32,280 nucleotides of DNA. Source: Candidatus Hydrogenedentota bacterium (lineage in GTDB: Bacteria > Hydrogenedentota > Hydrogenedentia > Hydrogenedentales > SLHB01). The stretch lies in contig JAWODE010000147.1 in assembly GCA_046483455.1 (NCBI GenBank), forward strand, positions 1-32,280. Reading direction: 5' to 3'. Numbering within the stretch: position 1 is the stretch's first letter; each line of letters starts with the position of its first letter. The translations under genes and the position numbers were made by a program. A model generated the notes under the pieces. That model had not been told where the DNA came from. It made no database searches and saw only the letters and a program-made list of their open reading frames with translations. Below are positions 7,273-21,727 of this stretch, in pieces.

Positions 7273-7677
7273 ATGCCAGGTGGAGATGGAACAGGCCCGG
7301 CTGGAATGGGCCCAATGACGGGCCGCGCAGCAGGATATTGCGCGGGATATGCAGCGCCAGGCTTTGCAAACCCGGTTCCCGGACGTGGCTTCTGGGGTTG
7401 GGGCCGCGGTGGCGGCTGGGGCCGTGGTGGCGGCGGCTGGGGCCGGCGTAACTGGTTCTACGCAACCGGCCTGACGGGCTGGCAACGCGCCGGCTATGGG
7501 TACCCGATGGGAGGCACCACACCGTACGCAGCCCCCTACGCAACGCCATACGCCCCCCCTGTTTCTCAGGAGCAGGAAGTGGACATGCTCAAAGGCCAAG
7601 CCGAATACTTCGAGGACGCCCTGGCCGGGATAAAAAAGCGTCTCGAAGAACTCGAAAGCAAAGCCAAAGAAACCTGA
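7273..7677 (+). CDS. DUF5320 family protein (Gly/Arg/Trp-rich centre, C-terminal coiled coil)
   Basis: AAAGGAG RBS. N-terminus MPGGDGTGPAGMGPMTGRAAGYCAGY, a GRGFWGWGRGGGWGRGGGGWGRRNW centre, and the tail QEQEVDMLKGQAEYFEDALAGIKKRLEELE. Confidence 0.8.
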   Translation: MPGGDGTGPAGMGPMTGRAAGYCAGYAAPGFANPVPGRGFWGWGRGGGWGRGGGGWGRRNWFYATGLTGWQRAGYGYPMGGTTPYAAPYATPYAPPVSQEQEVDMLKGQAEYFEDALAGIKKRLEELESKAKET

Positions 7678-7691: not shown

Positions 7692-7723
7692 GGAGGGCCG
7701 AAGCGTTTTGCGCTCGGCCCTCC
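7692..7723 (+). promoter_or_regulatory. Very stable intra-operon stem-loop without a U-tract
   Basis: GGAGGGCCGA(A)GCG-UUUUG-CGC-UCGGCCCUCC gives 13 bp with one bulge. It starts 15 nt after the DUF5320 stop codon and is followed by CTACACGGG, with no T run. Confidence 0.6.
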
Positions 7724-7748: not shown

Positions 7749-7949
7749 ATGCCCCTCTTCAAGTATCGGTGTACCAAATGCGGAAATATCATTGAGGTCC
7801 TCGAAAAAGTTAACGCCCAAGGTCGGCACACGTGCGAGAAGTGCGGCAACCGTCGCATGGAGAAAATGATGTCGGCATTCAGCGTTGGTGCCGGGAATCA
7901 AGGCGGTACAGGAAGTTCCTGTCCGACGGGGACCTGTCCGCTATCGTAA
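7749..7949 (+). CDS. FmdB-family zinc-ribbon protein (CxxC-CxxC-SSSS type)
   Basis: MPLFKYRCTKCGNIIEV....HTCEKCG... and the tail GSSCPTGTCP. GAAAGGA RBS. Confidence 0.8.
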   Translation: MPLFKYRCTKCGNIIEVLEKVNAQGRHTCEKCGNRRMEKMMSAFSVGAGNQGGTGSSCPTGTCPLS

Positions 7950-8128
7950 CACGACGTTCCGCGGGTATTAACTCGGGCCTGCACTTTATAAAGCCTGCAG
8001 TAGCTCACATGTCTGAAATCAGGGGTAGGTAGTAGCGGTTTTTTGTGCAAGCTCTAAACGCATCTCAGAATTTTCAAAGAAAAACATTGGGAAAGCACAA
8101 ACCTTACTTACTTGAGGAGAGATCGTTT

Positions 8129-8563
8129 ATGGGACGAGGAATGGGCCGCGGTCGCGGTATGGGCCGGGGCAGAAAACGCCGAATGGGCATGGGAAGCGGA
8201 CGGTCGAGGTGGACAGCTCCACCGTCTGGCTTCGTGGGCGCAAATCGACCACCCCTGCAACCGGATAATAGTTTCTCAACACACGCTCCAAACAAAACGA
8301 GCGCTTTTCCAGCTGAAAAGAGTGAACAAACGGAAGGAACAAGAGAAGAAATGGGAGAAGTTAAGGAAGGTACGCAACGGTCGGGCTGGGTTGCAAATTT
8401 GAATGCGCGTCATTGTATTCTATGTGGCATATGCCAGACCGTTTGCCCCGTCGAGGCAATATCCATAGGTAGAAGTGTAATGATTAATCAGGACATTTGC
8501 ACCGGGTGCGGCGAGTGCGTGGCAGCGTGTCCTCAAGACGCGTTATCGTTAAAGAAACGCTAG
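8129..8563 (+). CDS. RG-rich N-terminus fused to a 2x[4Fe-4S] ferredoxin domain
   Basis: GAGGAG RBS before ATG 8129. N-terminus MGRGMGRGRGMGRGRKRRMGMGSGR, a low-complexity linker, then CILCGICQTVCP and CTGCGECVAACP. Confidence 0.7.
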   Translation: MGRGMGRGRGMGRGRKRRMGMGSGRSRWTAPPSGFVGANRPPLQPDNSFSTHAPNKTSAFPAEKSEQTEGTREEMGEVKEGTQRSGWVANLNARHCILCGICQTVCPVEAISIGRSVMINQDICTGCGECVAACPQDALSLKKR

Positions 8564-8615: not shown

Positions 8616-9968
8616 ATGAAACATGTCGATATCCTTGTTATCGGGGGCAGTGCGGCAGGTCTAACCGCCGCGATTACCGCGAGACGACACTATCCGGAGA
8701 AACAGACGTTTATCCTCCGCAAAGAGGAGCAAGTGCTGATTCCTTGTGGCATTCCATATATCTTCGGCACGGTGGGAAGCCCCGAGAAAAACTTAATACC
8801 TGACAAGGTACTGGCCCAAAACCAGGTAGACCTTCTTGTTGATGAAGCTACCGAGATCGACCGTGACAAAAACTGCGTTATTACCGCAAACGGGGAATCC
8901 GTCGGCTACGACCGCTTGGTTCTGGCCACGGGATCATTGCCGGCCATGCCGCCTATACCCGGCTTCGAACTCGAGAATGTGTTTCCAATATATAAAGATG
9001 TCGCCCATCTCCACCAAATGCAAGAAGCACTACAAGGCATATCTGATCTCGTCATCGTCGGCGGCGGGTTCATCGGCGTCGAATTCGCGGATGAATGCAA
9101 GAAAAGCCTCGGAGCAAACGTATCTATCGTTGAAATGCTTCCCCACTGCTTGATGCTGGCGTACGACGAAGAATTTTGTGTCCACGCCGAAAATCTGCTC
9201 CGCGAAAGAGATATTGAGCCTGTTACAAACACACGGGTTAAACGGATTGTTGGCACGGATTCCGTGGAAGGCGTCGAACTCGAAGACGGCAACACCATCC
9301 CGGCCCAAGCGGTGATTTTGGGCATCGGCGCCGCGGCAAACGTCACGCTTGCTGAACAGGCCGGACTCCAAATCGGCCCCACGGGCGGCATCGGTGTAGA
9401 CCGCACTATGCGGACATCTGACGAACATATCTACGCCTGCGGGGATTGCGCGGAAAAAGTCTCTTTCTTTGGCGGCCGGCCATCGGGTCTCAAGCTGGCT
9501 TCCATAGCAACCGCCGAGGCGCGCATCGCCGCCGCCAACCTCTTCGGCACACGGCGAGAAAGCATTGGTACGGTAGGCGTCTGGTCAACGGCCATCGGCG
9601 AAACGGCCTTCGCCACCGCCGGCCTTACCGAGAGGCTTGCCAAACGGCACGGCTACTACCACGTGGTCGGTACCGCGGAAGCCCCCAATCGCCATCCGGG
9701 CGGAATGCCGGGCGCGCATAATATGAAAGTAAAACTCGTATTCGAGAAACGCACGGGGATAATCCTTGGCGGCCAGGTCATGGGCGATAGTGCCGCGGGC
9801 GAGGTCATTAACGCTATCAGTGCGTGCATTCAGCAACGTATGACCGCGGAAGATGTTGCGATGTTTCAAACGGGAACACATCCCGCACTCACGGCCTCTC
9901 CGGTTTCCTACCAATTCGTAAATGCCGCCGAGGCTGCAATTGCGGCCCTGCGCGAAACCAGCAGCTAA
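8616..9968 (+). CDS. FAD-dependent pyridine nucleotide-disulfide oxidoreductase (NADH oxidase/CoA-disulfide reductase-like)
   Basis: FAD fingerprint DILVIGGSAAGLTAA, putative redox Cys in LIPCGIPY, second dinucleotide fold LVIVGGGFIGVEFA, and ACGDCA. Confidence 0.8.
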   Translation: MKHVDILVIGGSAAGLTAAITARRHYPEKQTFILRKEEQVLIPCGIPYIFGTVGSPEKNLIPDKVLAQNQVDLLVDEATEIDRDKNCVITANGESVGYDRLVLATGSLPAMPPIPGFELENVFPIYKDVAHLHQMQEALQGISDLVIVGGGFIGVEFADECKKSLGANVSIVEMLPHCLMLAYDEEFCVHAENLLRERDIEPVTNTRVKRIVGTDSVEGVELEDGNTIPAQAVILGIGAAANVTLAEQAGLQIGPTGGIGVDRTMRTSDEHIYACGDCAEKVSFFGGRPSGLKLASIATAEARIAAANLFGTRRESIGTVGVWSTAIGETAFATAGLTERLAKRHGYYHVVGTAEAPNRHPGGMPGAHNMKVKLVFEKRTGIILGGQVMGDSAAGEVINAISACIQQRMTAEDVAMFQTGTHPALTASPVSYQFVNAAEAAIAALRETSS

Positions 9969-9983
9969 GACGGGGAGAAGACA

Positions 9984-10394
9984 ATGTGCACGATATTGAT
10001 CATAGATGACGACGCCGATTTTCGCGATGCCTGCAAGTTGATCCTTGAATCGGCCGGGTTCGCCGTTGCCGAAGCTGACGACCCCGAAGAAGGCTTAAAG
10101 AAGGTCGAGGCCGAAAATCCCGACCTTGTGATTCTCGATGTGCTCATGCCGCGCGAATATGAGGGTTTCGAGGTGGCCCGCCGCATTCGCGAAGAACTCG
10201 GGATGCACGACGTGCCGATCCTTATGCTGAGCGCGGTCCATGATGTGAAAAAAACACCCTATCGCTTTGAACCCAGTCAACCCTATTTGCCCGTTCAAGC
10301 ATTTCTGGATAAGCCTGTTGCGCCGGAAACGCTGCTGCGGAAAGTCCAGGATATGCTGGGCACACACCGGCACGAACCGGAAGAGCCGCTGTAA
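9984..10394 (+). CDS. Stand-alone CheY-like response regulator receiver
   Basis: ILIIDDD...PDLVILDVLMP (phospho-acceptor Asp context)...ILMLSA...K. No output domain. Confidence 0.85.
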   Translation: MCTILIIDDDADFRDACKLILESAGFAVAEADDPEEGLKKVEAENPDLVILDVLMPREYEGFEVARRIREELGMHDVPILMLSAVHDVKKTPYRFEPSQPYLPVQAFLDKPVAPETLLRKVQDMLGTHRHEPEEPL

Positions 10395-10435
10395 AGACCA
10401 CCCAAAAACAGTTTTGGCGTCACAAAGACAATGTC

Positions 10436-11128
10436 ATGATTTCACATGGACAAACCGACACCGGCCGTGCATTCGACTTCGGCAAACGCGCCCAGGATTA
10501 CGACCGGTGGTACACAACCCCCGAGGGGCAGGCGCACGACCGCGTACAGAAAGCGGACGTGCGCCACTTTCTCGGCCCGGCAACTTCGGGAATGCGCCTG
10601 CTCGACATAGGCTGCGGGACGGGGCATTGGAGCGGTTTCTTCGCCTCACTCGGGTATAACGTCGCAGGGGTAGATGTCGCCCCGGAAATGATTCAGGTGG
10701 CGCACAATCGCACTATGCCCGGCGTCGCTACTCAGGTAGCCGATGCACGTTTCTTGCCGTTTCAAGATGCATCGTTCGATGTGGCAGCCACCATGACGGT
10801 TCTCGAATTTCTTCCCGAACCCGCCACGGCGCTTCGAGAAATGGCGCGTTGTATAAAAATGCGGGGCCGTATGCTGATAGGGTGCCTGAACCGCTTTGCT
10901 TCTATCAATCAACAGCGTTTGGCCGAAGGCCGCGAACCCTATATATCAGGGCAACTCTTTTCGCCGGACGAACTTGCCGCATTGCTTCGGCCTTTCGGAA
11001 AGGTCCGAATGATAGCCTCAGAACCCGGAAACGGAAGAAATGAGACCGCTTCCAAGGCATTTAGGAAGGCCGGACCGTCTCGAACAGAATTGACTGGCCC
11101 CCTTATTATCGCGGAGGTGCAACGGTGA
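10436..11128 (+). CDS. Class I SAM-dependent methyltransferase
   Basis: Motif I LLDIGCGTGHWSGFFA and post-I VAGVDVAPEMI; Methyltransf_11-like. Confidence 0.8.
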   Translation: MISHGQTDTGRAFDFGKRAQDYDRWYTTPEGQAHDRVQKADVRHFLGPATSGMRLLDIGCGTGHWSGFFASLGYNVAGVDVAPEMIQVAHNRTMPGVATQVADARFLPFQDASFDVAATMTVLEFLPEPATALREMARCIKMRGRMLIGCLNRFASINQQRLAEGREPYISGQLFSPDELAALLRPFGKVRMIASEPGNGRNETASKAFRKAGPSRTELTGPLIIAEVQR

Positions 11129-11379
11129 TCATCCAGGCAGAGATCAGTCTTTATCCCTTGCGCGCGCAAAAAATCAGTCCGGTACTCGACGACTTTCTGA
11201 GCCATTTGCGAGCCCATGAACTCACTATTGAACCCGGCGCCATGAGCACCCATATTACAGGCGAGACCGATGAAGTGTTTTCGGCGCTGAATACAGCATT
11301 TGCGGCGGTGCTCAACGAGAATCAGGCGGTGCTGATCGTCAAAGTTTCGAACGCATGTCCGACGGAGCATCAACAATGA
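11125..11379 (+). CDS. MTH1187/YkoF-like (thiamine/HMP-binding fold) small protein
   Basis: IQAEISLYPL...HELTIEPGAMSTHITGE..EVF resembles the ferredoxin-like DUF77/YkoF repeat. The GTG start overlaps the upstream stop (GTGA). Confidence 0.5.
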   Translation: MIIQAEISLYPLRAQKISPVLDDFLSHLRAHELTIEPGAMSTHITGETDEVFSALNTAFAAVLNENQAVLIVKVSNACPTEHQQ

Positions 11380-12914
11380 TGAAATCTACACAGAAAGCCA
11401 CCTACTCGCCAACAAACACATTGACCCCGGAAGCCCTTGCATGGCGAGACAAGCGTCTCGCTCGAATCCGGCGTTGGGAAACCACCAACAAATACAAACC
11501 GTTTATTGACGAAGGGACCATCCAGGCAACGCTGGACCACAATAAGAGCCCTTCCAAAGAAGCGGTCTACGATATCATCGCCAAAGCACGCGCAAACGCG
11601 ACTACAGGAGCCATGCTTAGTCCCGACGAAGTGGCCTCCCTCACGGCAGTCACGGACCCGGAAATCTGGGAGGCCATTTTTGAGACGGCCTATTGGATAA
11701 AGAAAACGGTTTATGGCAACCGCATTGTGCTTTTCGCGCCGCTATATGTATCAAGCCCCTGTGTGAACAACTGCCTGTACTGCGGGTTCCGGGACAGCAA
11801 CCGCGCCGTCACCAAACGCACCCTCAGTTCTGAGGAACTGGATGAAGAACTCCGTGCCCTCGTTAATGCAGGCCACAAACGCCTTATCATGGTCTACGGC
11901 GAAAGCCCGGAAAACGATTATACGTACATTTGCGATACGATCGCCGCCGCGTACCGGTTCAAAGATGGGCCGGGAGAAATCCGCCGTGCCAATATCAACG
12001 CCGCTCCATTGTTCGTGAACGAATACCGCGACGTACGCTCTGTCGGCATTGGGACCTACCAGGTATTTCAGGAAACTTATCACCGGCCAACCTATGCATA
12101 CGTTCACCCGAAAGGGACACTGAAAGCAGAATACGATTGGCGCGCTTTTGCACTGCACCGCGCCCAGGAAGCCGAAATTGACGACGTGGCCATCGGGGTC
12201 CTTTTCGGTTTGTACGACTGGCGCTTTGAACTCCTGGGGCTTCTGGAACATGCCATGTCGCTCGAGCGGGAATTTGGAGTCGGCCCGCACACAATCTCGT
12301 ATCCCCGCCTGGAACCGGCGGAAGGCACGCCCTTCGCCAGCCATTCTCCGTGGCTCGTCAGCGACGAAGATTTCAAAAAGATCGTAGCCATTATCCGTTT
12401 GATGTGTCCATACACAGGGTCCATATTAACCGCACGCGAAGGCCCTGATCTTCGGCGAGAAGTAATGCGGAAAGGCGGCGTATCGCAAATGGACGCCGGG
12501 TCGCGAATCGCCGTCGGAGGATATGCTCAAATGAACCGGGACCATCAACCCGGCCGCCAACAATTCTTTTTGGCGGACAGACGCAGTCTGGATGCTTTCA
12601 TTCTGGACCTTTGTCGCGAAGGTTACCTCCCCTCTTTCTGCACGGCGGGCTACCGGGAAGGGCGAACCGGCGCCAATTTCATGCCCCTCGCCAAACATGC
12701 AACCGTCAACAACTTCTGCATCGCCAACGGCATACTCACGTTTCAAGAATATCTCACGGATTATGCTTCCGAAGCAGTCAAGCAATTGGGTCGCGAAACC
12801 ATCATTCCGGAATTTCTGGCATGGTTGGACGAACACGCCCCCGCGCTTGCACCGAAGGTCCGGACAAACCTCGAGCGTATGGAGCGCGAAGAAATCCGCG
12901 ATTTGCATTTTTGA
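11376..12914 (+). CDS. HydG/ThiH-family radical SAM aromatic-amino-acid lyase-like enzyme, with a variant C-terminal motif CX2GX22C
   Basis: APLYVSSPCVNNCLYCGF radical SAM motif. HydG-like C-terminal domain PSFCTAGYREGRTGANFM...NNFCIANGILTFQEYL. The ATG at 11376 overlaps the upstream stop (ATGA); the track ATG at 11355 is an alternative. Confidence 0.8.
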   Translation: MMKSTQKATYSPTNTLTPEALAWRDKRLARIRRWETTNKYKPFIDEGTIQATLDHNKSPSKEAVYDIIAKARANATTGAMLSPDEVASLTAVTDPEIWEAIFETAYWIKKTVYGNRIVLFAPLYVSSPCVNNCLYCGFRDSNRAVTKRTLSSEELDEELRALVNAGHKRLIMVYGESPENDYTYICDTIAAAYRFKDGPGEIRRANINAAPLFVNEYRDVRSVGIGTYQVFQETYHRPTYAYVHPKGTLKAEYDWRAFALHRAQEAEIDDVAIGVLFGLYDWRFELLGLLEHAMSLEREFGVGPHTISYPRLEPAEGTPFASHSPWLVSDEDFKKIVAIIRLMCPYTGSILTAREGPDLRREVMRKGGVSQMDAGSRIAVGGYAQMNRDHQPGRQQFFLADRRSLDAFILDLCREGYLPSFCTAGYREGRTGANFMPLAKHATVNNFCIANGILTFQEYLTDYASEAVKQLGRETIIPEFLAWLDEHAPALAPKVRTNLERMEREEIRDLHF

Positions 12915-12916
12915 CC

Positions 12917-14395
12917 ATGATCAAACCATCGACAAAAGAAGCCATCATTTCCGAGTGTCGGCGTCTATGCGACACCTTTGGACTCGCGCAGGTCTACCTG
13001 GCCGAAGCCATCGGCCCGCGCCGCCACTATCTGGCCGGTTACGGGCAACCTTCCCTCGACAAACCGGAACAGCTTCGGCTGTCAGACAGAATAGCGGTCC
13101 TTTGGCATGGTACTATATCGCCTGAAATACGCGGTATCATTAGGCGGAAGTTCCGCTCGCTCACAGACCTTGTCGAGCATGAACTATCGCTACGTGAACC
13201 AAGTCACTCGGGTATGCGTCATGCATCACAACCAAAAGGAAACAGGAATATGCACGCCGACCCCCTTACCCCTTACGGCAACCGTCCTATGGTCACGCCC
13301 ATTGTCAACGCGGTGAATTATGAATATGCTTCATTTGAAGTCTTGCGGCAGATCACCGATGGCGAGATTGACGGATACACGTATCACCGGGACGATAACC
13401 CGACGGTCCGGGAGGTCGAACACAAAATCGCGGCGCTGGAAGAGGCGGAAGACTGCATCGTGTGTACTTCGGGCATGGCCGCGTGCACGATGACCTTTTT
13501 GACCTATTTGCACACCGGCGACCATATGATCATCTTTCATGATACCTATGGCGCAAATTACAAAGTCTGCCTTATTCTGGAACAACTTGGTGTCGACATA
13601 ACGTGGGTGGATGCCAGCGATGCCGGTCAAATCGAGGACCATCTCAAACCCAACACCCGCATGATCTTTCTCGAAACCCCCAGCAATCCGCTCTGCAAAA
13701 TCATCGATTTAGAGCACATACGGCGCGCCGCCGACACGGTAGGCGCCATGATGGTCGTCGATAACACCTTTGCGACGCCTTACCACCAGCACCCGCTCAA
13801 ATACGGCGCGGACTTGGTTATCCATAGCGCCACAAAAGGACTCGGCGGACATAACGACATCATGGCCGGTGCGATTGCCGGTTCCAAGGAACATTACAAT
13901 GAATTGTGGTTCACGCGCCAAGCTATTGGAACAACGCTCGATGCTTATAGCGCATTTCTCCTGAGCCGCGGCCTGAAAACATTTGAATTGCGGGCCGCCA
14001 CCGTAGCCGAAACCGCTCAGAAAGTCGCCGAGGCTCTTGCACCGCATGCCAAAATATCCCGACTGTCCTATCCGGGACTCCCCAGTCATCCCGGCCACGA
14101 AATCGCCCAAAAACAGATGTTTCGCGGCTTCGGCGGCCTCATGGCCTTCGATATAGGCGATTGCCAGGACGATGCCAAGGAATTCATTAAGCACCTCAAG
14201 GTCATTTATCACGCCGTTAGTTTGGGCGCTACCGAATCCCTTATCTGCATCCCTTATCTGACGACGATGCTATATCTCCCGCCGGAAAGACGGACCACAT
14301 TCGGTGTGAAGGAAAACACCGTCCGCCTCAGCATCGGGATCGAGCCAGCAGAGCGGATTCTGGAAGATATCGACCAGGCATTGGCTGCCGTTTAA
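12917..14395 (+). CDS. Cys/Met-metabolism PLP-dependent enzyme (cystathionine gamma-synthase/lyase, methionine gamma-lyase family) with a possible 111-aa N-terminal extension
   Basis: PLP-lysine block HSATKGLGGHND plus ETPSNPL, VVDNTFATP and SLGATESL. An ATG at 13250 with an AAAGGAAACAGGA RBS would give a canonical 381-aa enzyme. The ATG at 12917 lies 2 nt after the upstream stop, and the frame is open throughout. Confidence 0.85.
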   Translation: MIKPSTKEAIISECRRLCDTFGLAQVYLAEAIGPRRHYLAGYGQPSLDKPEQLRLSDRIAVLWHGTISPEIRGIIRRKFRSLTDLVEHELSLREPSHSGMRHASQPKGNRNMHADPLTPYGNRPMVTPIVNAVNYEYASFEVLRQITDGEIDGYTYHRDDNPTVREVEHKIAALEEAEDCIVCTSGMAACTMTFLTYLHTGDHMIIFHDTYGANYKVCLILEQLGVDITWVDASDAGQIEDHLKPNTRMIFLETPSNPLCKIIDLEHIRRAADTVGAMMVVDNTFATPYHQHPLKYGADLVIHSATKGLGGHNDIMAGAIAGSKEHYNELWFTRQAIGTTLDAYSAFLLSRGLKTFELRAATVAETAQKVAEALAPHAKISRLSYPGLPSHPGHEIAQKQMFRGFGGLMAFDIGDCQDDAKEFIKHLKVIYHAVSLGATESLICIPYLTTMLYLPPERRTTFGVKENTVRLSIGIEPAERILEDIDQALAAV

Positions 14396-14412
14396 ATACC
14401 AAGGAGGCAATA

Positions 14413-15285
14413 ATGTCCCGAATCGTAGTTCTCGTAGAGAATACAGCTTCCGGACAAGGATTCGTGGCAGAACATGGACTCGCATTCTGGCTCGAGCATA
14501 ATGGACACCGGATTCTATTCGATACCGGTCAAGGATGTGCCCTGCAGAACAACGCCCGCCTTCTCGACATCGGTCTCGAGACAGCGGACGCCATCGTGCT
14601 AAGCCACGGGCATTACGATCACACCGGCGGCCTCGCGGATGCACTCGACGTTGCCAACCCTCCGGCGGTTTTTCTGCACCCCGCGGCTCTCGCGCCAAAA
14701 TATACGAAACGAGCCGACGGCTCCGCTCGATATATCGGCATACCCAACCTCGACGAAGCGGCCCTACGTGAGAAAACTCAGTTGGTTTGGACCAAGGCGC
14801 CTACCGAAGTATCTCCAGGCATTCATATAACGGGCCCCGTTCCCCGCCAAACGGATTTTGAAGACGTGGGCGGCTCGTTCTTCGCGGATTCAGAATGCCG
14901 CGAACCCGACACGATGCCCGACGATCAAGCCTTGTATCTCGATACCGCGGAAGGAACGACGGTCATCCTGGGCTGCGCCCACGCGGGCGTTATCAACACA
15001 CTGCGCTACGTTCAGCAATTAACCCAAAACAGACCTGTTCACACGGTAATAGGCGGCACGCACCTTGTTTCGGCAAGCCCCGAACGCATGGATAAAACCG
15101 TTGAAGAGCTCACCGGCCTCGGCATCCAGCGCCTGATGCCTTGTCACTGCACAGGCTTTCCTGCAATGGCGCGTTTATGGCACGAATTCCCACAGGAATA
15201 TGTACCTTGTACTGTGGGGACAACAATAAACTTGGACATGCACCCCGCGGAATCCACGGCACAAAACACGGAGCAACAGCAATGA
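14413..15285 (+). CDS. MBL-fold metallo-hydrolase family protein (MJ0301-like subgroup)
   Basis: AEHGLAFWLEHNGHRILFDTG and LSHGHYDHTGGL. AAGGAGG RBS. Confidence 0.75.
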   Translation: MSRIVVLVENTASGQGFVAEHGLAFWLEHNGHRILFDTGQGCALQNNARLLDIGLETADAIVLSHGHYDHTGGLADALDVANPPAVFLHPAALAPKYTKRADGSARYIGIPNLDEAALREKTQLVWTKAPTEVSPGIHITGPVPRQTDFEDVGGSFFADSECREPDTMPDDQALYLDTAEGTTVILGCAHAGVINTLRYVQQLTQNRPVHTVIGGTHLVSASPERMDKTVEELTGLGIQRLMPCHCTGFPAMARLWHEFPQEYVPCTVGTTINLDMHPAESTAQNTEQQQ

Positions 15286-16112
15286 ATCACCCAAACGAAT
15301 CGGCCACCACCAGCCCAACGCCTTTTCTGAACGCGTTTTCAGAAAGCGCCGTTTCCAAAGCAATTCTTGAAGGCTACCACGAAAAATTCGGGAAAGCCCT
15401 GATTAGCGATGTCATAATTGTCGGAGCAGGTCCCGCGGGATTGGTAGCGGCATGGCATCTTGCGCGTGCCGGTTACCAGGTAGTCCTCCTCGAAAAGCGA
15501 CTCAGCCCCGGCGGCGGAATTTGGGGCGGCAGCATGGGAATGAACGAAATCGTTGTGGAAGAAGCGGCTTGCGAAATCCTCGAGGAAATCGGCGTTAGAT
15601 ATTCTCGACGCGAAGACCTCTTTTCGGCCGACGCCGCTGAATTGGCCTGCGCCTTATGTCTAAAGGCGCTGAACGCAGGCGCCATATACCTCAACCTTAT
15701 AACCGCCGAAGACATTTGCGCGCATGAAGGACAGGTCACCGGTATCGCCGCGAACCGCTCCCTTCTTGTGAACCAACTCCCCATCGACCCCATCGTTTTC
15801 AAATCGCGCGCCGTCATTGACGCGACCGGCCACGAAGCCGTTCTGGTGAACTGCCTCTACCGCCGGGGCCTTGTCGAAAACGCCACCGGCGGTCTTCCGG
15901 GCGAAAACGTCATGGACGCTCCCCAGGGAGAGGAATTCGTCATAAACCATGTCGCGGAAGTATACCCAAATCTGTGGATCACGGGAATGAGTGTCTGCAC
16001 AACGTTGGGGGGACCCCGAATGGGCCCCATTTTCGGGGGAATGTTGCTCTCGGGGGCACAGGTGGCTTCCCAAGTGGACGAGGCGCTAAAAACCCGCAAA
16101 AAAGAACCATGA
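15282..16112 (+). CDS. Thi4-family thiazole synthase-like flavoprotein-fold enzyme (archaeal/sulfide-dependent type)
   Basis: DVIIVGAGPAGLVAA, LSPGGGIWGGSM, IDATGHEA, GGPRMGPIFGGMLLSG. ATGA start/stop overlap with the upstream gene. Confidence 0.85.
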   Translation: MNHPNESATTSPTPFLNAFSESAVSKAILEGYHEKFGKALISDVIIVGAGPAGLVAAWHLARAGYQVVLLEKRLSPGGGIWGGSMGMNEIVVEEAACEILEEIGVRYSRREDLFSADAAELACALCLKALNAGAIYLNLITAEDICAHEGQVTGIAANRSLLVNQLPIDPIVFKSRAVIDATGHEAVLVNCLYRRGLVENATGGLPGENVMDAPQGEEFVINHVAEVYPNLWITGMSVCTTLGGPRMGPIFGGMLLSGAQVASQVDEALKTRKKEP

Positions 16113-17455
16113 CTGAACTGAACGATGCAGATAGCTGGTTGTCTTCCGAAGCAACATCGTGCCTGACCGAAATAGGTTTGCGACCGGGGCAGACCGTGCT
16201 CGATTTCGGATGCGGTAAAGGCCGTTACAGTATCCCCGCGGCGCAGGTGATAGGTGAACACGGTAAACTCTACGCCGCGGACAAGAACCCCGCTACGCTG
16301 GAGACAATACATCTCTGGGCTTCAACCATGGGAATCGGCCACATTGACACGCTAGACACCCATGGCAAAGTTTATACGCCCTTAAAAAAGAACTCCGTTG
16401 ACGCAGCGTTGCTCCACGATGTCCTGCACTTGATTGGATGGAAGGAAAAAGCGGGACGAACCATTCGAAAAAGCACCTATCGAGACCGTGAATCGCTTCT
16501 CCAGGAAATGTATCGAATCTTAAAATGCAACGGCATTCTGTCTGTTTTTTGCCCCCACCTTGCAACACACACGGACGTTACTTCGGAATACGCCATCATC
16601 CGAGAAATCATGAATGCAGGCTTCCGCCTTGAAAGAGAAATGTACCGGGAGATTATCCACGATGATCGCCTGCAGCAGAGTCATCTCTGCCGCTTTTCGA
16701 AGAAATGCTCCAGCGCCGAAAATGAAGAACCTTTTGCTTTCTCCTATGACGCCCCCTTGTTCCAAAAAGCGCTGAGAAACGACGGACACCATTTCGGCGA
16801 GGTACTTGTGCTCGCAAACCTCGTAGAACCTGGAATGACAGTTCTCGAACTTGGCGCCAACCGCGGCGTTACGACCGTTGCGCTTGCCAGGGCCACCGGT
16901 TTAGAAGGACAAGTCCACGCCTTTGAACCCGTTCCCGAATACTATGCGGCGCTCGTACAAAATCTACAACGAAACAGAATAGAGAACACCCAAGTTCATC
17001 AATTCGCCGTTACCGACAAAGAAAGTGTCTCTTCCTACTATAAGCACGGGGAAGGCAGTGGAATCGTACACGCGCATGAGGCTGAGACTATCCTCGTCGG
17101 AACCACTTCTCTCGACCACTTTGTAAAGACAGAAGATGTCGGCCAAGTTGACGTTATCAACATGGATTGCGAAGGAGCCGAATTGCTTGCGCTTCAAGGG
17201 GCAACGAACACGTTGCAAAAGCATGCCCCGCGAATATTTTGTGAGATTCATCATGAGTATCTTTCACGCATAGGTCAATCGGTCGGCGATATCGTGACCT
17301 TCCTGCATGCGCTCGATTTTCGCGCCATGCCGATCCGTGTCGAAGCACTCGGCGAACACGTTGGGTTCGAGGACTGCACCCACATCTACGCAGCAAAAGA
17401 CGAGCCCCTCCCGGACATCAAGTCCTTATTTCGTTGGCGCCGAGAAGGAATTTGA
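16109..17455 (+). CDS. Fusion of a class I SAM methyltransferase and an FkbM-family methyltransferase
   Basis: N-terminal domain: VLDFGCGKGRYSIPAA...LYAADKNP. C-terminal domain: VLELGANRGVTTVALA...HAFEPVPEYY...VDVINMDCEGAELLAL. ATGA overlap with the upstream gene. Confidence 0.75.
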   Translation: MTELNDADSWLSSEATSCLTEIGLRPGQTVLDFGCGKGRYSIPAAQVIGEHGKLYAADKNPATLETIHLWASTMGIGHIDTLDTHGKVYTPLKKNSVDAALLHDVLHLIGWKEKAGRTIRKSTYRDRESLLQEMYRILKCNGILSVFCPHLATHTDVTSEYAIIREIMNAGFRLEREMYREIIHDDRLQQSHLCRFSKKCSSAENEEPFAFSYDAPLFQKALRNDGHHFGEVLVLANLVEPGMTVLELGANRGVTTVALARATGLEGQVHAFEPVPEYYAALVQNLQRNRIENTQVHQFAVTDKESVSSYYKHGEGSGIVHAHEAETILVGTTSLDHFVKTEDVGQVDVINMDCEGAELLALQGATNTLQKHAPRIFCEIHHEYLSRIGQSVGDIVTFLHALDFRAMPIRVEALGEHVGFEDCTHIYAAKDEPLPDIKSLFRWRREGI

Positions 17456-17461
17456 AAAACT

Positions 17462-17626
17462 ATGGTCTATATAGACGAACAACGCTGTATCGGATGTGGC
17501 ACCTGTGTTTCAGTGTGCCCGTCAGGTTTCGAGTTGATAGAAGGAAAAGCCAAGGTAAAAGACGAGACGGCGGATTGCATACAAGACGCGGTGATAGCAT
17601 GCCCGCGAGGCGCTATCACGACATGA
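17462..17626 (+). CDS. Small single-cluster ferredoxin (54 aa)
   Basis: Below the ORF-track length cutoff. MVYIDEQRCIGCGTCVSVCPSGFELIEGKAKVKDETADCIQDAVIACPRGAITT contains CxxCxxCxxxCP and a distal CP. It starts 6 nt after the upstream stop. Confidence 0.8.
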   Translation: MVYIDEQRCIGCGTCVSVCPSGFELIEGKAKVKDETADCIQDAVIACPRGAITT

Positions 17627-17676
17627 GTTCGAGTCTCATGCTATCCGATTCGCTTGCGAAATAAGGAGGATAAAAA

Positions 17677-18045
17677 ATGGAAAAGCCTCTGCTTCGGAGT
17701 TGTGAAGCCTGCGGCAAAGAAATAAGCCGCCATAGCGCTTTTTGCCGCCATTGCGGCCACCCTCAGAAACTGCCTCTTATTATGTGGCTATTGGTGCTTT
17801 TTCTGCTTATGATGGTGGCGTTCTATCTCGCGTTTTGCATCTATTGCATGCTAAACGTGCAAGGATTACGGGTCATGCAACAAGCACTTGCGGACTCGGC
17901 CTATGGCACTCAACACAGCATGTCTCATGCCACGGTTCATGTTTTCCCCCTTCCCTGTGTCGGACCAATCGTTGCGGTGTGTCGAAACCGGCTTTCAGGA
18001 AACGCTTCAATTGCTCCACCGTCGCTCGACAGGCCAAAGGATTAA
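17677..18045 (+). CDS. Zinc-ribbon membrane protein, function unknown
   Basis: AAGGAGGA RBS. CEACG...CRHCG zinc ribbon followed by one hydrophobic helix (LPLIMWLLVLFLLMMVAFYLAFCIYCML). Confidence 0.6.
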   Translation: MEKPLLRSCEACGKEISRHSAFCRHCGHPQKLPLIMWLLVLFLLMMVAFYLAFCIYCMLNVQGLRVMQQALADSAYGTQHSMSHATVHVFPLPCVGPIVAVCRNRLSGNASIAPPSLDRPKD

Positions 18046-18054
18046 GGTGATGTT

Positions 18055-19005
18055 ATGAAATACGTGTTTGGACCTGTTCCCTCCCGGCGGCTTGGCCGGT
18101 CACTGGGCGTAGACCTCGTCCCCTTTAAGACGTGCAGCTACGACTGCATCTACTGCCAATTGGGACGAACAACCAACAAGACCACGGAAAGGCGTGAATG
18201 GGTTCCCATTGACGATGTCCTCGAGGAGATCAAGGACAAAATCGCTTCGAAACCCGACTACATAACGCTAAGCGGGTCCGGCGAACCCACGCTATCCACA
18301 CGTCTGGGAGACCTTATCGAAGGAATACACACTATCACCAACACCCCGGTAGCCGTGCTTACCAATGGCTCTCTCCTCTGGCAAAAAACCCTTCGTGAAG
18401 AACTGGCGGGCGCACAACTTATCGTGCCTTCCCTGGACGCGGGCGATGGACACATGTTCGACTCCGTAAACCGGCCCCATCCCGACATATCGTTCGAGCA
18501 CCTGATCGAGGGGCTGGTTGCCGTAGGCGGCGAGTTCTCAGGAACCATTTGGCTCGAAGTCTTTATTCTGGGAGGCTACACAGCCGGCGCGGCCGAAATC
18601 GAAAAGATTAACAGGTGGGTAAAACAGATCAAACCGGACCGTGTGCAAATCAACACGGTAACCCGCCCTCCTGCTGAAGACTTCGCGGTCGCGGTAGAGC
18701 GGCCAAAGCTCGAATTTCTCGCGTCATTATTCGAGCCGAAAGCGGAGGTCATCGCGGATTTCCTCAGTGTTCATGCACAAGCGGATTTTTCCGCCACGCG
18801 TGAAACCGTTCTTCAATTACTGGAACGTCGCCCCTGCTCGTTGGACGATATTGCCGAAGGACTCGGGATTCACCGAAACGAAGCCGTCAAGTATGTCGAG
18901 GAACTGCTTGCTATGCAACAAATAGAAACCGTCAAATCCGGAGAGCGGATCTACTATCGCATATCACAAGCCCGTCCCCCGACGGCCGACATTTTGGATC
19001 AGTGA
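18055..19005 (+). CDS. Radical SAM protein (COG0731-like) with a C-terminal winged-helix-like domain
   Basis: FGPVPSRRLGRSLGVDLVPFKTCSYDCIYCQLG (CX3CX2C), SGSGEPTL and VPSLDA. The C-terminus RRPCSLDDIAEGLGIHRNEAVKYVEELL looks HTH-like. Confidence 0.8.
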   Translation: MKYVFGPVPSRRLGRSLGVDLVPFKTCSYDCIYCQLGRTTNKTTERREWVPIDDVLEEIKDKIASKPDYITLSGSGEPTLSTRLGDLIEGIHTITNTPVAVLTNGSLLWQKTLREELAGAQLIVPSLDAGDGHMFDSVNRPHPDISFEHLIEGLVAVGGEFSGTIWLEVFILGGYTAGAAEIEKINRWVKQIKPDRVQINTVTRPPAEDFAVAVERPKLEFLASLFEPKAEVIADFLSVHAQADFSATRETVLQLLERRPCSLDDIAEGLGIHRNEAVKYVEELLAMQQIETVKSGERIYYRISQARPPTADILDQ

Positions 19006-19024
19006 TCGATGAAGGGGAACGATC

Positions 19025-19957
19025 ATGACAGAAAATAAACCGCCGATTATTGAAATCAAAGATCTCCATGTTGCGTTCAAAACGCCGCTTGGGCGGTCCG
19101 TGACCGCCGTCGACGGGCTCGATCTGTCCGTCAAACAGGGCGAAGTCGTTGGTTTCATCGGGCCCAACGGCGCGGGCAAAACGACCACCATCAAGGTGCT
19201 CATGGGATTCATCAAGCCTGACGAGGGAGACGTGCGTGTTTTCGGCGAAGCCGCGGGCTCTACCGAAGCACGGCGCCGCATCGGCTACCTCCCTGAAGTG
19301 GCCGTCTACTATCCCTTCCTGACCGCCCGCGAAGCACTCCGCCTCTACGCAAAACTTGCCGGCATACCACGAGACGGCCGCGAACAGGTCATCACCGAAT
19401 TGATCCAGAAAGTCGGTTTAGCCGGCCGGGACCGTGAACGGCTCAGCGGCTACTCGAAAGGCATGCTGCAACGAGTAGGGATTGCGCAAGCCATCATGGG
19501 CGATCCGGAAGCCCTTATCCTCGATGAAGTGACATCCGGTCTCGATCCCGTGGCCCGGCACGATGTCCGCGCAATCCTTATGGATTTCAAAACGCAAGGC
19601 AAAACGGTCTTTTTCTCCTCCCACGAACTGACTGAAGTGACCTTGTTATGTGACCGTATCATCCTGCTCGATGAAGGTAACGTTATCGAAGAAAACGAAC
19701 TCGCCCATCTCTTGGCCTCGTCGAAATCCGTAGTTATACGAGTGCAACAAGACGGTTCCCCGGCCACAGTGCCCGATAGCATTATCGTGCGCACCGCCGG
19801 AGCAACCGAGCAGGCCTATGCCGCGGATAGTTGGGAAAGCGCGGAGGCTTTCCGCAATCAGTTGGAAGCCGAAGGCGCGAACATTCTCGATGTGAAAGAG
19901 GAACCGCCCTCGCTGGAAGACTATTTCGTTCGAAAACTCGGCCACAAAACAACCTGA
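19025..19957 (+). CDS. ABC transporter ATP-binding protein
   Basis: Walker A GPNGAGKTT, signature LSGYSKGMLQRVGIA, Walker B ALILDEVTSGLD, and an extra C-terminal domain of about 70 aa. Confidence 0.9.
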   Translation: MTENKPPIIEIKDLHVAFKTPLGRSVTAVDGLDLSVKQGEVVGFIGPNGAGKTTTIKVLMGFIKPDEGDVRVFGEAAGSTEARRRIGYLPEVAVYYPFLTAREALRLYAKLAGIPRDGREQVITELIQKVGLAGRDRERLSGYSKGMLQRVGIAQAIMGDPEALILDEVTSGLDPVARHDVRAILMDFKTQGKTVFFSSHELTEVTLLCDRIILLDEGNVIEENELAHLLASSKSVVIRVQQDGSPATVPDSIIVRTAGATEQAYAADSWESAEAFRNQLEAEGANILDVKEEPPSLEDYFVRKLGHKTT

Positions 19958-19998
19958 TTGGTTTAGCAAGGCAAAGCACTGGTTTAGGGAGAACGACA

Positions 19999-20766
19999 AT
20001 GGAAAGATTGCTCGGCATCGCGCAGGTAACTATCCTCGAATCGGTCCGGCGAAAAGACCCCTACGTTGTGCTCATCCTCGGTTTCGCCATTGTACTCGGG
20101 GCTGGTTTGTTCAACCAGTTCGGCATCGAAGGACTCGAGAAATTCGTCAAAGACGTCGCCTTAACCGTCACCAACGTCCTCTGTATCGTCATCTGCGTCG
20201 TAGCGGCAGCGCGCCAGCTTCCGGTTGAAATCGCCAACCGCACCCTTTACCCGCTACTGGCTAAACCGGTCGGCCGAACAACCATCTTCCTGGGCAAATA
20301 TGTGGGCGTCGGACTGATGAGTTCCGCTGTCGTGGTGCTTTTCTGGGTGGAATTGCAAATTCTTTTCATGATGTTCGGAGTTTCGTCGGGAGCCATTTTT
20401 TTCCAGGCCATGTACCTACGGATACTCTCGATGTGGCTGATCGCCGCGGTGGTGGTGACGCTATCCCTGTTCCTTACGCATGGTGCGAACGTGACGGTTT
20501 CCTTATTGCTTTGCCTGGCCATGAGCACCTTTGCAAATACCATCCTGGCAATACACAGCGAACTGCAGGGAGCCGCACGCTGGCTTGCCGAAGGACTCTA
20601 CTGGGTCGTTCCCCATTTGGAACTTTTCGATCTTTCAAAAAAAGTCATTCATGAATGGCCGTCCATTCCTGCCTGGGCCCTCGTCGCGTTAACGGCCTAT
20701 GCGGTCCTCTACGCGGCCTTGTTTATCGCCCTTGGGTCCTGGCGTTTTCGGCGCACCGCCTTATAG
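19999..20766 (+). CDS. ABC-2-type transporter permease
   Basis: About six hydrophobic segments. The E..NRTLYPLLAKPVGRTTIFLGKY block is typical of ABC-2/NosY-like permeases. ATG 19999 is chosen; the track start at 19831 overlaps the ATPase gene. Confidence 0.7.
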   Translation: MERLLGIAQVTILESVRRKDPYVVLILGFAIVLGAGLFNQFGIEGLEKFVKDVALTVTNVLCIVICVVAAARQLPVEIANRTLYPLLAKPVGRTTIFLGKYVGVGLMSSAVVVLFWVELQILFMMFGVSSGAIFFQAMYLRILSMWLIAAVVVTLSLFLTHGANVTVSLLLCLAMSTFANTILAIHSELQGAARWLAEGLYWVVPHLELFDLSKKVIHEWPSIPAWALVALTAYAVLYAALFIALGSWRFRRTAL

Positions 20767-20794
20767 GGCGCCAAAAAAATGCAGGAGGCTGATT

Positions 20795-21727
20795 ATGTGG
20801 TCAAAATTGTTTCCTTTGGTATTGATTCCCGGCTTTGCCCTCTGCGGGCTTCTTGTTCGATTCCACGATGCCCGGATTGAAGAAGTGCGCGCCCAATTCA
20901 CCACCGAGGAAATGCAAGCCGCAAAGGAATCCATCGCCCTCAGCTTGATGGGCCAAATCCAGTTTACCGCACACAGTCTTATTTGGATGAAAACCCTTGA
21001 ATACCTTCACTACGGCGTCGCGTTGCGCATGCCCACCGCCGCTGAAGAAAGACAGGGCCTCCACGCCCATGAAGCAACCGACGTCGCCACGGGTTTATCC
21101 CATAAATGCGGGGTTCCGGTGGCTTTAGCCGAGAAAGTGGACTGGCGTGGACCGGTAGGCAAACTTCACCGGACGATTACCCCTCACATGGAAATCCATC
21201 GCCACAGCGCCCCTACCGAACTCATTCCCTGGTACCAACTTACCCTCAAACTGAACCCCAACATCGAACGTCTTTACTCCCTCGAAGCATTTTTCCTGGC
21301 GGACTTCGCCAACGAACCGCAGCAAGCTTACGAATTGCTCGAAGCCGGCGTCGAGGCAAATCCCTGGACATTCGAGATTCGCGCCGCCCTCGGGCGGCAT
21401 ATCTTCGACTATCACGAACAACTCGGCATTCCGCCCGAAAAAGCATATGAACAAGCGGCACAAATACTGCAAGAAGCCGTGGACCATGGAAAAGAAGAAA
21501 AGGCACGTCTTGAAAATACCGACAGTCAATTCGATGAATATCAGGAGCAATTGTTCGCGGAGTCTTACCTCTTTCTGGCCAAAAGTCTGACGGAACTGGG
21601 GCAGTATGAAGACGCCCTGGCCCTATGTGAGGAAGGATTTAAAGCGACCGGCCATAACCTTCTCAAGGTGCAGAAACGCGTCACCAAAAAACGTATGAAT
21701 AAGGAGAACGCGACTGCTTGGAACTAA
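20795..21727 (+). CDS. Membrane-anchored helical-repeat (TPR-like) protein, function unknown
   Basis: AGGAGG RBS before ATG 20795. N-terminal hydrophobic anchor MWSKLFPLVLIPGFALCGLL, then alpha-helical repeat-like sequence (LAKSLTELGQYEDALALCEEG). Confidence 0.55.
   Translation: MWSKLFPLVLIPGFALCGLLVRFHDARIEEVRAQFTTEEMQAAKESIALSLMGQIQFTAHSLIWMKTLEYLHYGVALRMPTAAEERQGLHAHEATDVATGLSHKCGVPVALAEKVDWRGPVGKLHRTITPHMEIHRHSAPTELIPWYQLTLKLNPNIERLYSLEAFFLADFANEPQQAYELLEAGVEANPWTFEIRAALGRHIFDYHEQLGIPPEKAYEQAAQILQEAVDHGKEEKARLENTDSQFDEYQEQLFAESYLFLAKSLTELGQYEDALALCEEGFKATGHNLLKVQKRVTKKRMNKENATAWN

Follow-up and report, generated by a model that had tools for sequence, protein, structure and literature searches.

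The complete 32,280-bp contig of a 'Candidatus Hydrogenedentota bacterium' metagenome-assembled genome (MAG), hereafter the window, carries a long run of tightly packed genes around G3, a paralogue of the radical S-adenosylmethionine (SAM) tyrosine lyase HydG in which one cysteine of the auxiliary-cluster motif is replaced by glycine. The locus very likely belongs to an orp-type sigma-54 operon, the type that encodes the orange-protein (ORP) system of Desulfovibrio, and the HydG paralogue probably has a role outside, or additional to, H-cluster maturation. We tentatively favor the reading that the locus is a redox-controlled, expanded orp-type operon built around the HydG paralogue, which assembles or exports a metal-sulfur or organometallic species. 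The locus probably exports its product, which would use a tyrosine-derived fragment, while the proposal that this product is metal-sulfur or organometallic rather than purely organic is made with some reserve. The orp system and HydG are both already known, and their combination appears here as an expanded orp relative.

Thirteen genes of this run (G1-G13, 10436-21727) had been described in an earlier sequence-only reading as a translationally coupled unit on one strand with near-zero spacing. The open reading frames (ORFs), all on the + strand, are as that reading described them: four junctions are 4-nt start/stop overlaps (GTGA at 11125; ATGA at 11376, 15282 and 16109, each present in the sequence), the remaining junctions are gaps of 2-50 nt, and GGAG/AGGAGG-like (Shine-Dalgarno-like) sites precede most starts. 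The tight same-strand packing fits co-transcription. The extent of the unit had been underestimated, since the co-directional run starts at 6544 and comprises ~20 genes (6544-21727), seven extra + strand genes preceding G1 with gaps of no more than 95 nt. The thirteen genes therefore appear to form the distal part of a roughly 20-gene sigma-54-type operon (6544-21727), whose 3' limit is the end of G13, where the next gene is convergent (HemW, 21724-22863, overlapping G13 by 4 nt). Within the operon neither sigma-70-like promoters (8 found, 9.2 expected from shuffles) nor terminator-like sites (16 found, 21.5 expected from shuffles) are in excess, and the GC content of the region (0.51-0.57) does not differ from that of the flanks. 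Domains were assigned from Pfam and NCBIfam profile scores relative to curated cutoffs, and these profiles bear out every domain call of the sequence-only reading. At 100% identity, G3 corresponds to NCBI protein MFO7973859.1 and G7 to MFO7973863.1. The genes on which the argument turns are:

11376..12914, + strand: G3, HydG paralogue of the radical SAM tyrosine-lyase family (Radical_SAM and BATS domains; HydG model TIGR03955 428.6 bits, cutoff 312.15)
12917..14395, + strand: G4, small HydG-partner (HgX) domain (12917-13249) fused to a Cys/Met gamma-family pyridoxal phosphate (PLP) enzyme (13250-14395; PF01053)
14413..15285, + strand: G5, TM1679-type metallo-beta-lactamase-fold (MBL) protein (Pfam Lactamase_B; PDB 3H3E and 2P4Z, both uncharacterised structural-genomics proteins)
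18055..19005, + strand: G10, COG0731-type radical SAM enzyme with a C-terminal winged helix-turn-helix (Pfam/NCBIfam)
64-1194: HydE-model gene, 10 kb upstream of G3 (304.5 bits, cutoff 254.6)

The alignment of G3 (residues 42-511) with Thermoanaerobacter italicus HydG (4WCX, 428 bits) is full-length and includes the C-terminal domain missing from ThiH; the protein carries the radical SAM CX3CX2C motif as CVNNCLYC (residues 129-136) and the conserved His of the 4WCX 'LYHANH' motif. Where the sequence-only reading had called G3 HydG/ThiH-like, the profiles separate the two: G3 exceeds the HydG cutoff (428.6 bits against 312) and scores 225.6 bits on the ThiH model TIGR02351, below its cutoff of 380. 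It is auto-annotated as HydG because the NCBI HydG model scores it above cutoff. G3 thus resembles the HydG structures 4WCX and 4RTB in its CX3CX2C motif, its BATS/TIM-barrel core and its full C-terminal domain. It departs from them at the auxiliary site. In HydG the auxiliary cluster is linked through a free cysteine to the dangler iron, the acceptor of CO and CN-. The auxiliary-cluster motif of HydG is CTACY...C (CX2CX22C), whereas that of G3 is CTAGY...C, the second Cys having been replaced by Gly, and the compensating Cys of Ammonifex (GRTGC) is Ala in G3-type proteins. The motif could be located in 108 of the 120 closest 90%-identity clusters and reads CTAGY in 101 of these, CTACY in 6 and CTASY in 1. 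The CTAGYREGRTGANFMPLAKHATVKNFC stretch is nearly invariant in the G3 clade despite overall identities of 60-86%, which argues that the altered CxxG motif is under selection. In a neighbor-joining tree the 79 CxxG clusters form one group, and they make up 79 of the 114 nearest full-length sequence clusters. Apart from the Cys motif, the only clade-specific substitution found in G3 was Y309/F, the comparison group being heterogeneous.

The CxxG-type proteins also differ from genuine HydG in their neighbors. The HydG of Thermodesulfatator (locus L045), which retains CxxC and is 66% identical to G3, lies beside HydE, HydF and two [FeFe]-hydrogenase (HydA) genes; that of Ammonifex degensii (L048), which is CxxG with a compensating Cys after GRTG, lies beside TM1266, aspartase, HydF and HydE. 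The CxxG type with Ala after GRTG never adjoins HydF or HydA and always occurs with the MBL gene, the COG0731-type radical SAM gene and orp-type genes. No HydF or HydA gene was found in the window or within 10 kb in the seven other CxxG loci, and within the same distance HydE is absent from seven of the eight loci, being present in the window alone. The sequence-only reading was right that the window lacks hydF and hydA, and it overlooked the HydE-model gene at 64-1194. This gene is 44% identical to the HydE beside the genuine HydG of both L045 and L048 and is followed by a Rex redox repressor gene (64-1915). It sits at the contig edge, so that hydF or hydA could lie just past it. Taken together, the G3 type appears to be a paralogue of recent origin whose deliberately altered auxiliary site is kept by selection, and it sits in a different conserved context.

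That context was examined in 50 loci, to which all window proteins were mapped (38 from an alignment of G7 homologues in genome and metagenome collections and 12 from exact-protein look-ups; locus numbers carry the prefix L). The CxxG loci, the window included, number eight (the window, L039, L040/L041, L044, L046, L047, L049 and L050) and derive from Hydrogenedentota, Kiritimatiellia and unassigned metagenome contigs. The TM1679-type MBL gene is present in all eight, as is the G10-type radical SAM gene, which in L039 is represented by a 34-aa C-terminal tblastn fragment 10.9 kb upstream on a contig that ends before the G10 position. The small HydG partner and Nitro_FeMo-Co proteins each occur in 7/8, the PAS sigma-54 activator in 6/8 and the ABC-2 exporter in 5/8; the PLP enzyme and the G7 fusion are each found in three of the eight, and Thi4 in two. 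From this distribution the conserved core would consist of the CxxG HydG paralogue, its partner, the TM1679-type MBL protein and the COG0731-type radical SAM/winged-helix protein, and would not be a thiazole pathway. The ABC-2 exporter and a membrane-anchored TPR protein usually follow this core.

The thirteen-gene block is not itself conserved. Among the 50 loci it recurs in one close relative only, L039, which repeats the window order from the activator through G7, where its contig ends; L039 proteins are 51-93% identical to those of the window (64-93% for G1-G7). In L040/L041 a RACo gene is inserted before the HydG-type gene, PLP enzyme and Thi4 are lacking, and a phosphoenolpyruvate (PEP)-utilising enzyme and an ArsP_2 permease follow G7. 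L044 lacks the methyltransferases, the PLP enzyme and Thi4; L049 has the Methyltransf_11-YkoF pair and a 492-aa HgX-PLP fusion and lacks Thi4 and G7; L046, L047 (Kiritimatiellia) and L050 diverge further in gene content. A second group of loci, centered on FkbM genes and drawn from MAGs of Planctomycetota, Lentisphaerota/Victivallales, Chlamydiota, Nitrospiraceae and Desulfobacterota, has the MBL, G10-type radical SAM, Methyltransf_11-YkoF, RACo, CoA-disulfide reductase (CoADR)-like and orp-type genes and no HydG-type gene in range. Since these loci keep core genes without a HydG-type gene, the neighborhood is modular. The gene set of the window is one lineage's combination of modules, in which Thi4, the FkbM fusion and the Methyltransf_11-YkoF pair appear to be lineage-specific add-ons. 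In L046, on a 4.27-Mb contig, IS66-family and rve transposase genes (7751-10041 and 17752-21605) flank the HydG-paralogue segment, and the HydG-type gene is called at 534 aa with a start that overlaps the transposase end; these flanks hint that the HydG-paralogue module is mobile.

G4 may connect the paralogue to sulfur chemistry. Its first 111 residues have no Pfam match and align with separate ORFs of 81-112 aa that lie directly after both CxxG-type and genuine HydG genes (including those of L045 and L048), with the motif GL..VY.AE..G.RRH.LAGYG in common. The remainder is a gamma-family PLP enzyme (PF01053, 392.9 bits over residues 121-489) in which SATKGLGGH aligns with the PLP Lys motif of 4L0O, and G4 reaches no NCBIfam equivalog cutoff. 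The in-frame partner-PLP fusion occurs in the window, L039 and L049, and the 492-aa fusion is gene-called in L049. It would physically couple a Cys/homocysteine-type PLP enzyme to the HydG paralogue. Identity of the small partner with Shewanella HydX was considered and rejected as unlikely, HydX being reported at 23.9 kDa versus 81-112 aa for the partner.

Upstream of G1 the window contains orp-type genes, a divergent activator and a candidate promoter:

2933..3769, - strand: Mrp/NBP35-type P-loop Fe-S carrier, MrpORP-like (Pfam ParA/NUBPL 322 bits)
4212..4862, - strand: AAA_23-type P-loop protein (Pfam AAA_23; homologues in L043 and L044 at 62-65% identity)
4982..6397, - strand (divergent): OrpR-like sigma-54 enhancer-binding protein with PAS, AAA+ and HTH_8 domains (Pfam)
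6514..6529, + strand: candidate sigma-54 promoter TGGCACAGTTTTTGAT (-24 GG / -12 TTGA), one mismatch to TGGCAC-N5-TTGCW
6544..6927, + strand: single-domain Nitro_FeMo-Co protein (orange protein / Orp8-like; PF02579 31.2 bits, cutoff 26.3)
6993..7214, + strand: small Arg/Gly-rich protein with a C-terminal zinc ribbon (read from the sequence, with weak zinc-ribbon Pfam matches)
7273..7677, + strand: DUF5320 protein, Arg/Gly-rich (PF17253 78.4 bits)
7692..7723, + strand: intergenic hairpin with a near-perfect 13-bp GC-rich stem and no U tract (minimum free energy -33.7 kcal/mol, z-score -6.15 relative to shuffles)
7749..7949, + strand: FmdB-family zinc ribbon protein (Pfam Zn_ribbon_8; TIGR02605 51.5 bits, cutoff 31.3)
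8045..8563, + strand: protein with an Arg/Gly-rich N-terminus and a 2x[4Fe-4S] ferredoxin domain (Pfam Fer4; homologues in L039, L040 and L016)
8616..9968, + strand: CoA-disulfide reductase / NADH oxidase family flavoprotein (Pyr_redox_2 209 bits)
9984..10394, + strand: stand-alone response-regulator receiver domain (Pfam Response_reg 78.8 bits), which also follows the flavoprotein in L039, L040 and L044

The orp cluster of Desulfovibrio is under sigma-54/OrpR control and encodes the Nitro_FeMo-Co protein Orp8, MrpORP and the MinD-ferredoxin proteins Orp3/4 (PMC6345978, PMC8359166); in Desulfovibrio vulgaris (DvH) it comprises the orp3-4-5 and orp7-8-9 operons together with the sigma-54 activator OrpR (PMC8359166, PMC6345978, PMC3897727), whose [4Fe-4S]-binding residues are C52, D/E54, C61 and C65 (PMC8359166). 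The PAS domain of the window activator contains C66-C67-D68...C75...C79, and this CX8CX3C spacing with an acidic residue at +2 is identical to that of C52/D54/C61/C65 in DvH OrpR. The activator is 75-76% identical to those of L039 and L044. The window locus shares with the orp system this divergent PAS/AAA+/HTH_8 activator with its CX8CX3C (+D) signature, a candidate sigma-54-type promoter, a single-domain Orp8-like Nitro_FeMo-Co protein, a Mrp/NBP35 P-loop protein and confinement to anaerobes; MinD-ferredoxin (Orp3/4-like) pairs and full MrpORP are found in sister loci (one or both in L016, L040, L046, L047 and L049) and not in the window. The Orp8-like protein aligns with the Di-Nase region at the C-terminal end of the MrpORP model, and its identity to the L039 homologue is 81%. 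The operon differs from that of DvH in its size, ~20 genes versus six structural genes, and in the addition of the HydG paralogue, the MBL protein, a second radical SAM enzyme, methyltransferases, Thi4, the PLP enzyme and an ABC-2 exporter. The orp-type genes, the OrpR-like activator with its promoter, HydE, the CxxG change and the partner domain fused to the PLP enzyme had all escaped the sequence-only reading.

The candidate promoter TGGCACAGTTTTTGAT ends 15 nt before the first operon gene (6544). Sigma-54-like matches with one mismatch number 18 in the whole window, within chance, so that TGGCACAGTTTTTGAT alone is not significant; in L039 (640) and L049 (5690) the orthologous site carries the motif as well, and L046 (2577) has a related version. 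Boxes TTGCAAT and TTTTGCACGATTAnTGAACG lie 5' of the sigma-54-like motif in the window (6398-6513) and L039 (500-640), with a variant form in L049 (5560-5690), and are candidate activator-binding sites unlike the DvH OrpR palindrome. Further downstream, the hairpin at 7692-7723 between the DUF5320 and FmdB genes is a possible attenuator or RNA-stabilising element, through which the small orp-type proteins and the downstream enzymes may be expressed at different levels. The flavoprotein has an active-site-type PCGIPY motif, matches 6PFZ NoxA-3 best in the PDB, followed by CoA-persulfide and CoA-disulfide reductases, and is 79-85% identical to its homologues in L039, L040 and L044. The AAA_23-type homologue in L043 sits between the radical SAM and ABC genes. 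Three small Arg/Gly-rich proteins are encoded in a row in the window (6993-8563), and homologues of the G8 ferredoxin in L043, L018 and L025 have long DUF5320-like Arg/Gly-rich tails, a recurring cationic low-complexity feature of the system.

From gene content, synteny, sequence motifs and the regulator signature we infer a working scheme in which every chemical step, and the nature of the product, is put conditionally. At low redox potential the Fe-S/PAS activator would switch the operon on, and the small ORP-type proteins that bind Fe-S or metal-sulfide species, together with ferredoxins, would provide scaffold and electron supply. The HydG paralogue would cleave tyrosine to p-cresol and dehydroglycine, and its altered, more open auxiliary site may serve to produce or pass on a C1/N fragment (CO/CN-type ligands or an imine), while the fused PLP enzyme could deliver cysteine- or homocysteine-derived sulfur directly at the paralogue. 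The MBL protein and the second radical SAM enzyme would process the intermediate, the SAM methyltransferases and Thi4 would be lineage-specific additions, and the ABC-2/TPR module would move the product to the envelope. In its logic, by analogy and not by membership, such a scheme resembles NifB/NifX assembly, where a minimal-core radical SAM enzyme acts with Nitro_FeMo-Co proteins, ferredoxins and Mrp/MinD-type ATPases. Foldseek ranks NifB near the top for G10; however, the TM-score is only ~0.5, other radical SAM cores match equally well, and a nitrogenase-like target is not present. Haft's SAO organometallic locus was also compared and is unrelated. We found no description in the searchable literature of a CxxG HydG subclass or of orp loci with these extra enzymes. 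It is conceivable, if unlikely, that the CxxG HydG, its partner, the MBL protein and the COG0731-type radical SAM enzyme constitute an unrecognised biosynthetic machine on an ORP Fe-S scaffold, building a new organometallic or metal-sulfur cofactor or an exported metallophore; a product such as an Fe or Mo/W centre with tyrosine-derived CO/CN-type ligands is proposed with equally little confidence.

The remaining genes of the operon are:

10436..11128, + strand: G1, class I SAM methyltransferase (Methyltransf_11; Pfam, no NCBIfam equivalog reached)
11125..11379, + strand: G2, MTH1187/YkoF-fold small protein (PF01910 35.9 bits, cutoff 24.9; PF07615 Ykof 31.1 bits, cutoff 21)
15282..16112, + strand: G6, sulfide-dependent-type Thi4 (TIGR00292 240.7 bits, cutoff 148.3)
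16109..17455, + strand: G7, fusion of a class I methyltransferase and an FkbM methyltransferase (TIGR01444 112.7 bits, cutoff 37.7, residues 244-381)
17462..17626, + strand: G8, 54-aa single-cluster ferredoxin (Pfam), found after G7 homologues in L018, L020, L025, L028 and L043
17677..18045, + strand: G9, zinc ribbon and transmembrane protein (Pfam; homologues in L039, L040, L043 and L013)
19025..19957, + strand: G11, ABC ATPase of DrrA/NodI-like exporter type (Pfam, NCBIfam)
19999..20766, + strand: G12, ABC-2 permease, start codon uncertain (PF12730 27.4 bits, PF12679 24.2 bits)
20795..21727, + strand: G13, N-terminal transmembrane helix and TPR protein, always 3' of the ABC pair (homologues in L021, L040, L043, L044 and L049)

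None of G1, G4, G5, G10 and G13 reaches an NCBIfam equivalog cutoff, and G2 scores 20.5 bits on TIGR00106, below the cutoff of 54.7. A YkoF-like gene lies directly 3' of the G1 homologue in L002, L015, L022, L040/L041 and L049 and was not detected in L050, L023 or the contig-end locus L001. A RACo-type reductive activator comes next after the G1-G2 pair in L015, L022 and L040, in the slot that G3 holds in the window. G6 aligns with Thermovibrio Thi4 7RK0 at 206 bits, its DATGHEA segment corresponding to DATGHDA in 7RK0 and 4Y4N and being identical to DATGHEA in 4Y4M, with GGGIWGG and RMGPIFGGM also conserved, so that it looks like an ordinary catalytic Thi4. L016 (11550-15654), from a Planctomycetales MAG, encodes in order a full two-domain MrpORP, a thioesterase, Thi4, a MetY-like PLP enzyme and ZnuA/ABC-3 metal-uptake proteins; Thi4 and the PLP enzyme are separated by 1 nt, a second, independent pairing of Thi4 with a gamma-family PLP enzyme inside an orp-type locus. 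G7 homologues comprise ~38 full-length fusions and ~45 FkbM-only proteins, and in L002, L003, L018, L040 (11356-14172) and L043 they are flanked by a PtsI-like PEP-utilising enzyme and an ArsP_2-type permease (the permease only in L018), both of which are absent from the window. The G10 family is very large and uncharacterised (JGI label COG0731; at least 8000 candidates at E<=1e-20), and its AlphaFold2 model (pLDDT 77) retrieves from the PDB by Foldseek only generic radical SAM cores (TYW1, PFL-AE, NifB and viperin, TM-score ~0.5). FmdB-type zinc-ribbon proteins encoded directly 5' of the G10-type gene in other loci (L040 15325-15582; L044 12718-12960; L022, L027 and L016) have a conserved five-Cys tail, CGRDxPCCGRxxPCDTxPC, which may serve as a metal site or as substrate of a radical SAM enzyme. 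G12 homologues in L020, L021, L040, L043 and L044 are 59-84% identical.

Several observations weigh against the favored reading. The MrpORP-like protein (2933..3769) scores 382 bits on the NCBIfam MrpORP model NF041136 (cutoff 450) and consists of the P-loop part without the C-terminal Di-Nase domain, the window contains no homologue of the Orp3/Orp4-type CbiA-Fer4 (MinD-ferredoxin) proteins, the -12 element of the candidate promoter is TTGA and not TTGC, and the DvH OrpR palindrome GGGCGYRTTTTGCGCCC has no match in the window with up to 3 mismatches. The MBL and G10-type radical SAM genes occur in the orp-like loci L015, L022 and L013 without a HydG-type gene within 10 kb, which makes the HydG paralogue itself facultative. 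Nor is a target enzyme or product identifiable from the locus. In Ammonifex the second Cys of a functional HydG has moved to another position, so that an unrecognised ligand might compensate in G3, and the HydE-model gene indicates that the organism probably matures an [FeFe]-hydrogenase, for which G3 could be the HydG. The last two points belong to the main rival, that G3 is nothing other than the functional HydG with which the organism matures its [FeFe]-hydrogenase and that its neighbors (a thiamin Thi4, a Cys/Met PLP enzyme, methyltransferases and an exporter) are a mosaic of anaerobe housekeeping genes with no common product. It can draw on the score and NCBI name of G3 (428.6 vs 312 bits), on its 66% identity to the Thermodesulfatator HydG of a hydE-hydF-hydA cluster, on the HydE-model gene in the window (304.5 vs 254.6 bits, 64-1194), on the small partner that also follows genuine HydG and on the Cys-motif variation of Ammonifex inside a genuine hyd operon. 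However, G3 has neither the second Cys of CxxC nor the alternative Cys after GRTG; HydF and HydA are missing within 10 kb in all eight loci and HydE in seven; MBL, G10-type radical SAM and orp-type genes accompany the CxxG type without exception in Hydrogenedentota, Kiritimatiellia and unassigned contigs; and the translational coupling of G2 to G3 together with the HgX-PLP fusion argues for a dedicated role. We consider this rival unlikely as a whole, including its account of the neighbors as housekeeping genes.

Three other models each have some support and each conflict with the conservation pattern. The sequence-only reading had proposed a thiazole small-molecule pathway, in which sulfide from the PLP enzyme and an imino-acid fragment from the HydG-like enzyme are combined by the Thi4-like enzyme and the product is methylated, modified by radical SAM chemistry and exported. 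Every domain that this pathway needs is encoded in tightly coupled genes in the window and L039, Thi4 and a gamma-family PLP enzyme are adjacent (1-nt gap) in the orp-type locus L016, G3 is in the tyrosine-lyase clade that includes ThiH, G6 meets the Thi4 model and G2 has the MTH1187/YkoF fold. The window also lacks thiG, thiS, thiF, thiC and thiE, and an Rfam scan of it returned no family at gathering score and no thiamine pyrophosphate (TPP) riboswitch, which upholds the earlier view that neither canonical thiamine synthesis nor a canonical hyd operon (hydA and hydF being absent too) explains the gene set. These same absences distinguish the locus from ThiH/ThiG- or Thi4-based thiazole synthesis, as does a G3 that lies well short of the ThiH cutoff and possesses the C-terminal domain of HydG. 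Catalytic Thi4 uses glycine, NAD and sulfide rather than dehydroglycine, and G6 is a typical catalytic Thi4. The proposed chemistry fails the conservation check that the sequence-only reading had itself put forward: Thi4 is missing from 6/8 CxxG loci, and the PLP enzyme and the methyltransferase-FkbM fusion each from 5/8, L016 combines Thi4 and the PLP enzyme although a HydG-type gene is lacking in range, the methyltransferases come and go irrespective of HydG type, and G2 travels with the methyltransferase (elsewhere also with RACo) and not with Thi4. We regard the thiazole pathway as improbable. Slightly less probable still is methylation and efflux of a metalloid (As, Sb, Se or Te), with the SAM methyltransferases acting on a thiol-bound metalloid and the transporters removing the product. 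The G7 N-terminal domain and G1 have arsenite/tellurite methyltransferase models among their better NCBIfam matches (51.6 and 33-34 bits), but all such scores are far below the ArsM and TehB cutoffs; the ArsP_2-type permease and PEP-utilising enzyme that flank G7 homologues in L002, L003, L018, L040 and L043 have no counterpart in the window, where ArsP_2, ArsR, ArsC and ArsB are all lacking; and although a CoADR-type thiol reductase (fused to rhodanese in L043) and an ABC exporter are present, L044 and L046 have the HydG/MBL/radical SAM core without any methyltransferase. Very improbable, finally, is a module resembling those for ribosomally synthesized and post-translationally modified peptides, in which the winged helix of the G10-type enzyme recognises, and the enzyme modifies, an upstream Cys-rich zinc-ribbon protein that ABC-2/TPR exports. 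A small zinc-ribbon gene does lie directly 5' of the G10-type gene in the window, L040, L044, L022, L027 and L016, its FmdB-type versions have the CGRDxPCCGRxxPCDTxPC tail and an ABC exporter is next. Yet in other loci the upstream gene encodes a ferredoxin, a DUF169 or a PNPOx protein, the window G9 is a membrane protein without a Cys-rich tail, no SPASM/twitch domain and no leader-peptide or protease features are seen, and the structural search with G10 gives generic radical SAM cores only.

The rest of the window (21724-32254) holds unrelated neighbors: on the - strand a HemW-type radical SAM protein, a GYD protein, a sulfotransferase and a sulfatase, and on the + strand (25343-28905) an IorA/IorB-like 2-oxoacid:ferredoxin oxidoreductase and a PaaK-like ligase, a combination that suggests aromatic amino-acid fermentation.

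The expanded orp-type operon around the HydG paralogue has consequences for both of its known components. The CxxG clade (79 of the 114 nearest clusters) is auto-annotated as HydG despite the missing cluster ligand and the different context, and since HydG serves as a metagenome marker of hydrogenase capacity, counting the CxxG type could overstate that capacity in Hydrogenedentota, Kiritimatiellia, Planctomycetota and Desulfobacterota. As a natural HydG variant with an altered auxiliary site, it is also a ready probe of how that site controls CO/CN chemistry. On the physiological role of the orange proteins, the literature consulted offers no more than a suggested connection with cell division. 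In several phyla orp-type regulators and scaffolds share operons with a pair of radical SAM enzymes, the MBL protein, enzymes that mobilise sulfur, methyltransferases and an exporter, an arrangement that points to biosynthesis or assembly as their role and names candidate partners. Should the CxxG HydG and its core partners indeed build a cofactor or metallophore on the ORP scaffold, this would give a biochemical function to the orange-protein complex, whose role has been unsettled since its description.

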